NCBI GenBank assembly: GCA_051294905.1
Contig: CM119372.1
Span: 22,756,001-22,816,000, forward strand
Direction: 5' to 3'
Length of the DNA: 60,000 nt
From: Botryllus schlosseri
Taxonomy: Eukaryota
This document shows, one piece after another, positions 25,735 through 30,528 of the stretch (its first letter is position 1; the number at the start of each line of letters is the position of its first letter). A program made the translations under genes and the position numbers. The notes under the pieces were generated by a model that saw only the letters and a program-made list of their open reading frames with translations, did no database searches and was not told the DNA's origin.

Positions 25735-28700
25735 TCAAGAAAAATAAATATTTAGTTCATTAAAATCAATTTCCCATTTTCTTGGCTTGTCTTTGTTTGA
25801 TTTTGAACTATACAGCTCGCGTGATAGCCGGGGGATTTGACCATAGACGACATTAACCAGCCCAACGTCTGAACGATGCTAACGAAAGACATCGTACCCT
25901 ATGGTTTACAACTGCACAATCGTACTGTACATATGGACTTACCTATAGGTCTCTCGCACTGTGCCCTGCAGGCAAAGACAGTCTGGAATCTGTTCGCATT
26001 TCCTTCGCAACCACCGTAATAAAAGTTCTCACAGCGTCGTGTGTTTCTATTGTAGTAGAAACTTAGAATAGCGGCCTCGCACGGACCTGTATCTTTGTCG
26101 AGTGTGCAGACGGAACCTACGAGGATTCATACAGTATATTTCTTAGCATTGCAGCTGGTGATGCTTTAGAAAATTGAATGGATAGTGGTAATCTCAGCCA
26201 TGCATAAAAGTTACGTACAGTTCACGGCTTCTTTAAGACAGGGGTTCTTAAAGTATGGGTCGCGAGGGGTATAAATTTGAGTCGAGACCACACCAGAGGG
26301 ATCTTTTAATCTGCATAACATTAGCTGAATTTCTTGCGCGCAACGAAAAGTTTTCTTCGCGCATCGCGCGATCTCCCGTGGAACGAATACTCTTTCGTAT
26401 AGGTGCCTGTGTTAGGTACAGTCAAAAAACGCGACACGTCGAAATGTGGTTACGACAATATGGCTTGATCTTGAAAATGTGCTGACTTTATTTCTATTAC
26501 ACAAATTGGCTTGATGTCATGATATGTTTTGTCAAACATTGATTTTGCTAGAAAACTCTACCTTGCTAGGAAACTACTCGGGTAGATTCGGGGGAGGGCA
26601 AGAGCGGGGCAGTAACTGCCGGACCCTATATTTGTTTTGAGTACGCATAATTTATATAAATGAATATAACTTTCTGCGCAATTGTGAAATATTGCTGGTT
26701 TAATTTAACGCCACCTTGGCTCAAAATGACCGTCGCTGGTTGGTCAAAACCTTCAATATTTACATGCACGGACTCCGAAATGGTCGGCATCGAATAACCT
26801 CGTCCTTTCAATGTGGGCCTTGCAGAAGAAAATGATGCACCCCAATTTGAAATCGCGTGTGTCACACATGTTTCATAGAACTGCATTGCGTACAACTGAT
26901 TGTCTCCAACCTCTCTGATTTATACGTCACATGTCGTCGCATACTGCCACTAAAAATGCAGTCATTTTGATGTCTGAGGCTCGGGTCGCGAGATATCAAT
27001 AAAACCCAGATTTGGGTCGCGGTCTAAAAAGTTTAAGAACCCGCTTTATGACTTTGATAGTCGTAAATAGCCTACTTTTATCACATTCCTCCTTCCTCAC
27101 GCATGTACTGTCGGTTCTGCTTTTGCGTACATAACCTTCCGCACAGACGCAGAAATCGGACGGATTGCACTCTTTTGTACACTGGATTGGGTCGTCGGCT
27201 TTATCTTCACACGTTGGAGGACAATTGCTTGGACAGGCTTTGTAGACTTCCGGGAAAGTACACACTGTAGGGGACATGACAATTACTCTTACATGCTGTG
27301 CGTTAGCGGTCATGTCATATATTTTTACCAACACATTTTCCGTTATGAAGATTGCCTGTCCTGCACACACATTCTCCGTTCTGACAATATTGGTCTGGTG
27401 GACAGTGTGGGCAGACTGCAAGTCGAGATATGTGATGGCAAAAGAGTTTAAGATGAGATTTTATTGAATGGACTTACCGCATTTCCCAAACACTTCGCGA
27501 CCCGATTTGCACACACAAACGCCGTTTTTGCAGACTCTGTCGCTTGAGCACTGTAAGTAGCACACTCGAGGGAAAAGGGTAATCGGAGTTGGAGGTGGCA
27601 GAACAATCGCCGGAGGTGCTAGGAAATGACCAAAACGATCACTATACTATCTCGAAAATTGGTCACTTTTAATATGTGTGTACCAACCACAATAGCCGAA
27701 TCTATCGATGACACCCAAGCAGACGCATCTGTCATCCCTGCACACTCGTCCCCTACTGCAGGATTTTAGTCCGCATGCTGTAACGAAAACGGTGTATTTC
27801 ACTGATTTCCACTGTGGCGTGATGTGAAAATCAGGTAAACCGCAAAGAACACATTCTTGTACAAAGCTTAGCTTTCACACTTAATTCAACGGGTAAAAAC
27901 GAGTCAACTTAATTATACTTCTTACAGACGAACATCCCGGGTGAGGAGTGGGTTCTGTATTCGTGTTTCACTCCAAGAATGTGAAATAAATGCGTTACAC
28001 TTAACAGTAACCCAGGGTTGTAATGACTCGCGTCAGACTCGAGTCACGATTTTTTTGTGACTCGACTTGCCTCGAGTCATTTTCTTGAAATGGGAAAATG
28101 ACTCGACTCGACTCGAGTCAATCTTTGGATTGACTCGACTTGTACTCGAGTCATTACGCATGACTCGACTCAAGTCATTGACTCGGCTTATTTTATATGA
28201 CTTGAAGGTGAAGAAATTTGCGAATCACAATGGTTAGATCAACGCATGTGACGAATTCGGTCGACATCGCTAGTGATGAAGAGGTGATAGATCCTCAGCA
28301 ATCAAAGTACTCAAGACTTTTCAATTATACAAGCAAACAATCGAATCAAAGTTTAATAAGAGCCAATGAAACGACTCAGATGGTCAAGTAACCTACTTGG
28401 AAGGGACTGATAAGCTCATGTGTAGATTTGAAGGCCATAATTCGTTGCATTTTTGGGCGACTAGAATGGATGAGTATCTAATACTCTTCAGTGTGGTTCA
28501 AAAATGCTCTTCAATTCCTGCATCTAACGCACCAGTGGAACGTGTATCCAGTGGATGTGGATTTATTCCGAGGCCATGCCGCTTTAACATATACGACAAT
28601 CTCCTTTCCACTTTAGTATTTTAAGTGTAACTCATTGATTTGATCTACTGTATCTGAAAACACACAATACCCTCCGTCCATTTGACGTTTTGTTAGGTAT

Positions 28701-30528
28701 GTGCATTGTGCACGTGAGTAATAATGAATGGCTAATGTTGTGTGATGTTTGTACAATAGGGCTGATCAAAAATAACTTCTTTTTTATTCTACTGGGTGGC
28801 TACTTGATGAAATGGCTATTTTGCATAAAAAGAACACTGAATCTGGCTTAATTTTTAAAAGTAGAATCAATGATATGAGAGGAGAAAATTTTGGATGTGA
28901 AAATAAATGGAGTATTTTTAGTGAGAAATGCTTTCATATAATATAATTACATACTAGTAATAAGTCGACTATTTTTTCATGTCCCAAATATTCCACTCCA
29001 ATAACTTCGCTTCTTCTAGTTGGAATTGAGCCAAATTTGCTATGAATCATATTTTTACACAATCTAACAATATCATGAGGTAGCTGGTAAAATTCGAAAG
29101 TCTCTATTCGTAATTAATCCAAAATATTTTCTCTTAGCATTGCTTTCTACTGGTTGGAATTGAGCAAAATTTAAGTTATTTTAGAAAATTCAAGAATTTT
29201 AAGAAGTAGCCTCCTTTTTGAGATTTTGTCCTCATTTTTGAGAATTTTTGGTAAATGTAGGGCAAATTCAACGAAAATAACAGTAAATCAGCACTAAAGT
29301 AACGCTCCGGCGACTATTTCGGGAGCTGAGCAGGCAAGTTGACCTTTTTCCATGAAAATGTTGGGTTATCTATAGAAACGGTGCTCACCAAATTTGGTTC
29401 AATTCCAACCACTGGAAGCGGAGTTATTGCCGTCGGAAAATTTGGATTATGAATAAAATAGTATTTACGCCGTTACGGCGACCAATTCTTTAATTATTTA
29501 TTATAGTGGTGCCCACCGTAAATATTATTTTATACAAATCCAAATTTTTCGACGGCAATAACTCCGCTTCTACTGGTTGGAATTAAACCAAGTTTCTAAC
29601 ACTTCCATGGGGGGAACAGAAAATCTTCAAATTTTTTGTTATTTATTTTTATATAATAAATAGAAACTTTCTTCTCATGTAGCAATGCGGCTAATGGTTG
29701 GAATTGAACCAAATTTGGTGTGCAGGCTTAAATTAGGTCACCTAACAATTTTATCAAGTAGCCAGTGCGATTTGAGAAAAAAAGTAATTTTTGAATAGCC
29801 CTAATGTAGACATGAATTCGTTAATCCTCTATAAGCTATTTGTGAGCGGTCGTCGATGTGCTCGTAATAAAAACTGAATGCTTGTATGTGTGATGTATCA
29901 GACTGACAAGACAGATATTTGATTTAAAGATCTAAGAGTAGTAAGTTATCGTATTGGCGGCCTGTCTCGTCTATCTGTAGCATCGGTAAATGAGGCCAGG
30001 AACTGTCCGTTATCTGCCTAAATAAACATGTGCCAAGACTATGATAGGGACAAAATAAGCATGTTTGGCAAGCAAGGAATTCGATATCACCCAAGCAGGA
30101 TTGAAAACATAAGTTGAACATGACTTCAATACCGTGACTTGGACTCGGACTCGAGTCATAACACTATGACTCGGACTTGACCCTTCAAACGGTGACTTGG
30201 ACTCGGACTCGACTCGGTGATGAATTGAAAATGACTCGACTCGACTCGAGTCAAAACCACAAAAGTAAGATTGACTCGTGACTCGGAACCATGTGACTTG
30301 GTTACAACCCTGCAGTAACCCACCATAATGGGTAGAAGTATACCCTGATGATAAATGTAAATGAGGTTGCGCTGTATTCGTGCTATATAAATATATATAA
30401 ATATATAAATAGAATATAAAGAACCTGAGAGATACATATTGAATTTTGAACTTACGCGTTTTGTAGTAGCGTGATTCTGCAAATATACTGCAAAGCCAAA
30501 TCGCCAATACAGATCTTAAGAGTATCAT
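25735..30528 (-). CDS. Secreted Cys-rich multidomain protease-inhibitor-like protein: signal peptide + 3 EB-like repeats + TIL + Kunitz/BPTI (~311 aa)
   Basis: Phase-1 exons 30528-30456 (MILLRSVLAIWLCSIFAES), 30371-30324, 27777-27688, 27618-27478, 27415-27329, 27264-27076 (TIL, 10 Cys), 26116-25943 (Kunitz CTLDKDTGPCEAAILSFYYNRNTRRCENFYYGGCEGNANRFQTVFACRAQC), 25868-25735. Exon 2 and the last exon are less certain. Confidence 0.82.
26239..27043. mobile_element. Charlie-like MITE in the intron between the TIL and Kunitz exons
   Basis: TIR caggggttcttaaa / tttaagaacccg; TSD CTTTAAGA/CTTTATGA. Confidence 0.75.
28013..30312 (+). mobile_element. Defective hAT transposon with GACTC arrays and a C-terminal dimerisation-domain remnant (28397-28630); nested palindromic MITE at 28757-29803
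   Basis: TIR cagggttgtaa / ttacaaccctg; perfect TSD CAGTAACC. LHFW...IPASNAPVERVSSGCG...LLSTLVF matches the hAT dimerisation motif. Inner TIR tagggctgatcaaaaat / atttttgaatagcccta. Confidence 0.9.

Follow-up and report, generated by a model that had tools for sequence, protein, structure and literature searches.

In a window of 60,000 nucleotides from Botryllus schlosseri (assembly GCA_051294905.1, contig CM119372.1, positions 22,756,001 to 22,816,000; coordinates below are positions within this window) we find a minus-strand gene for a cysteine-rich mosaic protein with a predicted signal peptide. It is a genuine spliced gene, apparently undescribed, in which two six-cysteine repeats (repeats 2 and 3), a TIL domain and a Kunitz domain are carried on one transcript. 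Its combination of six-Cys repeats, TIL, a Kunitz domain with an acidic P1 residue and a four-Cys module is a new one, assembled from known parts. As to function, we read it, at about even odds, as a secreted inhibitor of proteases, probably associated with matrix, whose TIL head carries Lys at P1 and would be of the trypsin type, and whose Kunitz head carries Glu at P1 and would not.

Splicing of the gene

Among 24 matched sequencing runs, 16 rows contain the stretch or part of it; they come from six studies and none is recorded as RNA. Four runs (X1, X4, X8 and X19) were aligned over 24000-31500. The RNA status of X4 and X8 is a program's guess, yet both runs, from two studies, hold a single spliced contig (1154 and 1144 nt) in which the exons of repeat 2, repeat 3, TIL and Kunitz follow one another with the GT-AG introns precisely removed. 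The contigs omit 959, 64 and 62 nt (with CT..AC ends), which are the introns between Kunitz and TIL, TIL and repeat 3, and repeats 3 and 2. Because these introns are removed exactly, we regard X4 and X8 as spliced. Run X1 is unspliced across 25543-28053 and has none of the three joints, so that it can be used as a DNA-like control. Of 59 joints, 15 were read directly, as were 24 of the 4831 pieces; the other joints were deduced from contig depth.

The depth arithmetic agrees within one base in the diagnostic bins. Shares of runs X5-X10 lie at 0.36-0.38 against an exon-only expectation of 0.35 (X8 being the one of these that was aligned), and the contig depths are 8.7 and 18.9, although depth says little about expression. 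Of the raw RNA run X19 about 6 in 100 was read; it has zero depth in bins 25757-26007, 27263-27513 and 27514-27764, the three made up entirely of exons and short introns.

The two contigs share three exonic differences from the window among the 40 rows listed (with 412 further): at 26083, 27518 and 27555. One replaces Pro by Leu immediately ahead of the second cysteine of the Kunitz domain, another replaces Leu by Ser in repeat 2, and the third is silent. Probably these are allelic; their small number is no basis for inferring selection.

Corrected gene model

Coding exon 1 (30456..30528) starts with the ATG at 30528, encodes a predicted signal peptide (about residues 1-19) and ends in a GTAAGT donor in phase 1. 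Its hydropathy is the maximum of the whole model (KD11 2.55 at residue 7), which agrees with the leader proposed earlier. Bin depth adds a 5' untranslated region (UTR) of about 50 nt, to around 30578: the 49 and 53 nt implied for bin 30526-30776 suit exon 1 preceded by a leader of that size. At the start of the spliced contigs, 44 nt upstream of the ATG, lies a strong pyrimidine tract followed by AG (30572-30580, minus strand), which could be a trans-splice acceptor, the mark of an extra 5' UTR exon, or an initiator.

Repeat 1 (27688..27777; cysteine spacing 4-5-4-1-9) is placed by bin depth. In bin 27514-27764 the contigs amount to 182.0 and 181.9 nt, where the expectation with repeat 1 is 182, and the 213 and 214 nt of contig lying 5' of repeat 2 equal repeat 1 (90 nt) plus exon 1 (73 nt) plus the leader of about 50 nt. 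The joint from exon 1 to the next exon is not among the 15 of 59 joints listed. The Pro-rich linker shares an exon with repeat 2 (27478..27618; 3-5-4-1-9), which is found in X4 contig record 11; its joint 27415/27478 occurs in both X4 and X8. Repeat 3 (27329..27415; 2-5-4-1-9) has both flanking joints in the two runs, the TIL exon (27076..27264) is spliced on both sides, and the Kunitz exon (25943..26116) is joined to it over the 959-nt intron and ends in a phase-1 GTAAGT donor.

Past this donor the contigs extend for 350 and 339 nt, and at that depth the extension does not lie within 24251-25942. An acceptor scan points to a 60-nt exon at 23701..23760 (flanked by AG and GTAAGT, phase 1) for a four-Cys module (4-5-4), and to a last coding exon at 23008..23033 with two Cys and the stop at 23008, the weakest-supported exon of the model. 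With 60 nt taken by the former, 290 or 279 nt remain, which would put the contig ends at 22744 or 22755, just before the single AATAAA (22728) of the 3' UTR. A scan for phase-1 AG..GT exons with Cx2-4Cx5Cx4C returned four in the window, all belonging to this gene and 23760-23701 being the fourth, against one in 12 shuffled windows; a hidden Markov model built only from 63 Styela cores ranked the same segment third-best of 2736 (independent E-value, iE, 0.0011). We infer that the exons at 23760-23701 and 23033-23008 complete the transcript.

The corrected model has seven introns, all GT-AG and all in phase 1. Its frame is open through eight exons with every Cys retained, giving a protein of 279 aa. 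Past the leader it has 40 Cys, its mature mass is about 29 kDa and its pI 8.4. A scan of the corrected protein found no N-glycosylation sequon, RGD motif, polymerising domain or second strongly hydrophobic stretch. Exons for EGF, Kunitz and TIL modules are as a rule symmetric in phase 1, so that a uniform phase is no surprise in a mosaic of them.

The sequence-only reading had already recognised part of this: three Cys-rich repeats, each on its own exon, and a Pro-rich linker could be located as described, all on the minus strand, the phase of the introns was right, and the spliced contigs bear out a single transcript that links repeats, TIL and Kunitz (the joints of repeats 2 and 3 being read directly). 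Its length of about 311 aa (reconstructed here as 311 codons from 30528 to 25735) did not survive, as it needs two exons that lie outside the spliced contigs. The supposed last exon at 25868-25735 (minus strand) is intronic: in both runs the depth of bin 25757-26007 corresponds to 64.9 nt, which is the 65 nt of Kunitz exon in that bin and leaves no room for it. Nor does the gene end at 25735, for the contigs continue 339-350 nt past the Kunitz exon instead. The second, a 45-nt exon at 27970-27926 (minus strand), would raise the depth of X4 in bin 27765-28015 to 4.05 or more, where 3.32 is observed, and the 213/214 nt remaining at the 5' ends of the contigs do not accommodate it. It is absent from the main transcript, and might at most belong to a minor isoform.

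TIL and Kunitz domains

Both inhibitor folds claimed earlier, a TIL with ten Cys and a complete Kunitz domain, exceed their Pfam gathering cut-offs (24.5 bits for TIL and 21 for Kunitz). The Ascaris-type TIL (PF01826) scores 38.5 bits (E 1.3e-9) over profile positions 1-55 of 55 with ten Cys. Its AlphaFold2 (AF2) model has a confidence (pLDDT) of 77, with 65-72 in the loop region. Foldseek places the inhibitors AMCI, LL-TILmut1 and BSTI on ranks 1-3 (probability 1.00, 0.99 and 0.94), and TILs of mucins and von Willebrand factor (vWF) follow from rank 4; the top rows have TM 0.55-0.63 and E 0.011-0.11, above 0.001. In alignments the loop C-T-K-E-C is matched by C-D-K-K-C in BSTI, which inhibits trypsin, and by C-T-M-Q-C in AMCI, which inhibits chymotrypsin. 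At the position that we take to be P1, a choice consistent with these activities, the TIL has Lys as its putative P1 residue. The identical loop occurs three times in Styela P0015 and also in Styela P0135. According to the accessible parts of two papers, BSTI inhibits trypsin and thrombin (PMC3721222), and P1 Lys or Arg confers trypsin inhibition on TIL proteins (PMC10004685).

The Kunitz/BPTI domain (PF00014; 68 bits, E 8.4e-19) is complete, with six Cys spaced 8-15-7-12-3, and its exon has 136 matches in PDB. Its P1 residue is Glu and its P1' residue Ala. A canonical trypsin-type Kunitz domain has Lys or Arg at P1 and Ala or Gly at P1', by the available text of PMC3285612; here P1' fits, P1 does not, and we rejected this assignment. 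The same text gives Lys/Arg as usual at P1 and domain 1 of Ixolaris as a known case of Glu. Glu occupies P1 in 5 of the 64 Kunitz domains of the proteins retrieved to that point. A word-index search with the Kunitz exon gave six matches, five of them papilin-like or multi-Kunitz and none with a TIL, and within the window tblastn detected neither another TIL exon nor another Kunitz exon.

Six-Cys repeats and four-Cys module

The earlier label of EB repeats could not be maintained. Two of the repeats score 15.6 and 13.3 bits against EB (PF01683; cut-off 24.3), the alignment spans only profile positions 27-52 of 52, and repeat 1 has no Pfam match. The Styela relatives likewise align to 27-52 below cut-off, and EB identity was rejected on these grounds. 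A tenascin- or teneurin-type EGF (PF18720, PF23106) was dismissed as well, since repeat 2 alone responds and its scores stay below cut-off (14.5 bits for EGF_Teneurin against 24.3, and 14.1 for EGF_Tenascin against 25). The repeats are best called compact six-Cys EGF-like units. The AF2 model of repeat 2 is a beta-hairpin with a pLDDT of 75-82 over the repeat; fold searches with it returned no match at Z >=2 or E <=0.001, and atlas look-ups gave only leads below 0.9 (DPY, EB and EGF). For the four-Cys module a DPY assignment (PF21164) was discarded, as the spacing is 4-5-4 against 5-5-4 and the 20-residue exon has no Pfam match.

Relatives of the protein

With the TIL exon as query, phmmer found 142 matches among 1.84 billion representatives, none of them near-identical. 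Six of the 142 carry the six-Cys repeat pattern (five from Styela clava), four carry a Kunitz pattern and none carries both; Pfam scans, which covered 125 of the matches, recover the same four Kunitz proteins. These are from the spiders Oedothorax (P0028) and Parasteatoda (P0034) and the nematodes Steinernema (P0093) and Aphelenchus avenae (P0127). A combined profile of repeat and TIL retained 13 proteins from 752 candidates, namely seven from Styela clava, one Logan protein and five weaker TIL arrays (four of them from arthropods), and none of the 13 has a Kunitz annotation. A word-index search with the TIL exon yielded no candidate, a weak blank in that it missed P0012 despite a shared stretch of 11 residues. 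Scoring was by single domain and against cluster representatives, which could let a diverged orthologue of the full architecture go unnoticed.

The Botryllus protein thus belongs to an unnamed Styela-type family: it has a six-Cys repeat followed by a TIL, has four-Cys modules and is predicted to be secreted. The architecture had been put forward as unrecognised, and this holds for the full combination, which is absent from the 142 TIL matches and the 13 family matches; the core of repeat plus TIL is known from Styela. It is not an unrelated one-off either, given that a multi-gene family of Styela clava has this core and that spiders and nematodes combine Kunitz with TIL. A lineage-restricted secreted mosaic of phase-1 modules is what the results support. 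Literature searches on the architecture returned no description of the Botryllus protein or of the Styela family; in PMC9395347 and PMC4523013 the relevant words occur only among the references or in unrelated settings.

Several Styela clava proteins (P0008, P0012, P0015, P0135, P0009, P0170, P0036, P0044 and P0080) are apparently expanded, undescribed TIL mosaics under unrelated automatic names. Several of them share a contig of 25.6 Mb, a single locus accounts for 29 clustered isoforms, and in two of the mosaics an IGFBP-like domain accompanies the TIL.

Possible function

The sequence-only reading had conjectured a protease regulator of immunity, tunic or fertilisation. The reading we favour is that of a basic, disulfide-locked protein of about 29 kDa (up to 20 bonds from its 40 Cys) that would control extracellular serine proteolysis. 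It may have originated when a phase-1 Kunitz exon was inserted into a member of the Styela-type family of six-Cys repeat, TIL and four-Cys module. To judge from its hydropathy, the leader would direct secretion. By analogy, the EGF-like repeats and the Pro-rich linker might act as a rigid spacer and attach to matrix, tunic or a cell surface. The TIL loop, in which the Lys itself is observed, would enter the active site of a trypsin-like protease as in BSTI. With Glu observed at its P1, the Kunitz head is unlikely to block trypsin; it may bind a protease that favours an acidic P1, or dock at an exosite. A short protein with one TIL that has gained a second inhibitor fold would seem to fit regulation better than the arrays of 500-950 aa found in its relatives. 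Serine proteases and their inhibitors have been reported from the ascidian tunic (PMC7401272) and from Botryllus rejection libraries (PMC2527998), although this protein is not named in the available portions of either paper.

Several points weigh against inhibition. The TIL P1 position is our assumption, backed solely by the alignments with BSTI, LL-TIL and AMCI. Model confidence over the loop region is modest (65-72), and mucins and vWF use TIL domains structurally too. The Styela relatives carry up to seven TILs with mixed loops; Lys or Arg stands at P1 in only 12 of the 36 loops from Styela, compared with 111 of the 458 from the remaining matches, both sets being selected by likeness to the Botryllus TIL. 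Glu at the Kunitz P1 is not the usual Lys/Arg (PMC3285612, as far as its text was available), and the secreted Kunitz protein BLI-5 enhanced serine proteases in vitro instead of inhibiting them, by the accessible parts of PMC4095051 and PMC11304992.

Such points leave room for other explanations. It is possible, though we would not bet on it, that the protein is a structural, disulfide-cross-linked part of the tunic cuticle, of an adhesive or of a mucus net, in which the TIL and Kunitz folds serve as protease-resistant blocks; TILs in mucins and vWF and the small two-disulfide modules of Dumpy and CREMP would be the analogies. The relatives P0008, P0009, P0012, P0015, P0033 and P0135 are indeed long arrays with 15-18% Cys, P0170 bears a vWA domain besides its TIL, mucin and vWF TILs match the Botryllus TIL model, and the 4-5-4 module is near the Cx5Cx5Cx4C of Dumpy DPY (bioRxiv 10.1101/2025.09.16.676614, in the part available). 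Yet the Botryllus protein is short (279 aa), has an even number of Cys after its leader (40), lacks sequon, RGD motif and polymerising domain, and has a TIL loop of the trypsin-inhibitor type; the low contig depths (8.7 and 18.9) point the same way, poor gauge of expression though they are. Rather unlikely, in our view, is a protease co-factor or a secreted signal, where the acidic-P1 Kunitz would position or activate a protease away from its active site, as in BLI-5 or Ixolaris, or the EGF-like repeats would signal, as Hemps at metamorphosis. Glu at P1 recalls Ixolaris domain 1, which acts through an exosite-bound scaffold (PMC3285612), BLI-5 activates serine proteases (PMC4095051), and Hemps is a secreted stolidobranch protein with four EGF-like and three novel Cys-rich repeats (PMC3760835), all three according to the portions at hand. 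Against this, the sequence comparison with BLI-5, Ixolaris and Hemps covered generic Kunitz similarity, the accessible Hemps text mentions neither TIL nor Kunitz (PMC3760835), and the repeats match no EGF family above cut-off.

We consider it very improbable that the exons do not form one functional gene (being separate transcripts, a pseudogene or retrocopy contigs) or that the 311-aa form is real. The RNA nature of X4 and X8 is only guessed, the joints from exon 1 to repeat 1, from repeat 1 to repeat 2 and to the two 3' exons were not read directly, and X19 has zero depth in bins 25757-26007, 27263-27513 and 27514-27764. Nevertheless, three introns are excised at exact GT-AG sites in two studies while the unspliced X1 has none of those joints, eight exons keep an open frame with all Cys, and depth fits within one base in the diagnostic bins.

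A more specific version of the inhibitor proposal is quite unlikely as it stands: recent exon shuffling would have equipped one member of a styelid family of matrix proteins with a second head and so produced a matrix-tethered two-headed inhibitor, with the TIL directed against a host trypsin-like cascade and the acidic-P1 Kunitz against microbial glutamyl-specific proteases. If it were true, the Pro/Leu difference by the Kunitz loop would be one sign of selection from host-microbe or colony contact.

Should the proposed inhibitor function be correct, the gene would show in compact form how exon shuffling, in the sister group of vertebrates, has given rise to a protease regulator that has two heads and is specific to one lineage. 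It would also give entry to an unstudied Styela-type family whose common architecture is masked by names such as zonadhesin-like, tenascin-like and SCO-spondin-like. Natural Kunitz domains with an acidic P1 are a minority with poorly known targets. No new mechanism is opened, as all modules are known and Kunitz plus TIL mosaics exist in other phyla.

Transposons and neighbouring features

The three long introns are long mainly because DNA transposons have inserted. Most of intron 1 is a decayed hAT element (28013..30312) with terminal inverted repeat CAGGGTTGTAA, an exact 8-bp target duplication and a Dimer_Tnp_hAT match of 24.3 bits at 28373-28624; other copies of hAT ends lie at 58551-59077. 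The element has GACTCGAGTC-rich subterminal repeats, and a second palindromic repeat element is nested at about 28970-29800. The intron between TIL and Kunitz holds a probable miniature inverted-repeat transposable element (MITE; 26239..27041, bounds approximate) whose inverted ends have GGTTCTTAAA in common. In the intron after the Kunitz exon lies a MITE at 24529..25587 with CAGGGG ends and an 8-bp flanking duplication, of which a copy, 71-80% identical, is found at 37027-38244. A further MITE-like element with inverted ends was seen at about 23810-24285.

Elsewhere in the window, a homeobox gene extends over several exons on the minus strand (5150-8122), with Pfam Homeodomain matches at 6063-6506 and 5153-5764; its homeodomain is presumably Distal-less/Dlx-like. 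On the plus strand a multi-exon ABC transporter runs from about 46700 to 60000 and past the end of the window (ABC_membrane at 51517-51804, ABC_tran at 57731-58270); by its motifs we take it to be ABCC/MRP-like. Two related TCTAAT-rich tandem arrays with a period of 42 nt are located at 18072-18222 and 20478-20590.

Comparison with known systems

The inhibitors BSTI (Bombina, 1hx2), AMCI (1ccv) and LL-TIL (8hwu/8j3q) have the same ten-Cys TIL fold and loop position as the Botryllus TIL, whose Lys stands at the same place in the loop as the Lys of BSTI. All three, however, are stand-alone peptides of about 60 residues without repeats or Kunitz domain. BLI-5 of C. elegans reportedly contains an EB module, unconfirmed in the text consulted, and we know of no TIL domain in it. 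By description, BLI-5 is a secreted Kunitz protein of the apical matrix (PMC4095051, PMC11304992, available parts). Hemps of Herdmania is a secreted stolidobranch protein with four EGF-like and three novel Cys-rich repeats, and an inhibitor domain is unmentioned in the accessible text (PMC3760835). Rusticalin of Styela rustica also has secreted stolidobranch Cys-rich repeats, but by the partial source their pattern is Cx6Cx6-7Cx8Cx7CC, and kinship was rejected because of this difference.

Nearer in composition is AAVH_00055 of Aphelenchus avenae (KAH7731158.1, P0127), a secreted Kunitz plus TIL mosaic with two Cx4Cx5Cx4C modules. Its Kunitz domain is only 39% identical to that of Botryllus, and it has no six-Cys repeats, another domain order and several TILs. 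With Kunitz plus TIL in spiders and nematodes, and Cx4Cx5Cx4C in P0127 as well, a similar toolkit has been combined elsewhere; these spider and nematode mosaics were probably assembled independently.

The closest system is the family of Styela clava. Its members include LOC120343085, named 'tenascin-like' (XP_039268111.1, P0135), and LOC120347030, named 'zonadhesin-like' (XP_077974246.1, P0012), and further XP_039266246.1 / LOC120341751 (P0008) and XP_077967184.1 (P0015), all names being automatic. They have in common with the Botryllus gene a hydrophobic leader, a Cx2-4Cx5Cx4CxCx8-10C repeat directly before a TIL, and four-Cys modules. Identity is 43-52% for the TIL and 54-62% over 24-26 aa for repeat 3, and P0135 aligns with residues 25-279 of the Botryllus model at 28% (E 3e-23). 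The Styela proteins are longer (517-944 aa) with two to seven TILs and no Kunitz found, against 279 aa and one TIL in Botryllus. Because they mix six-Cys repeats, four-Cys modules and TILs, the Botryllus gene can be seen as a short member of the Styela type to which a Kunitz exon has been added.

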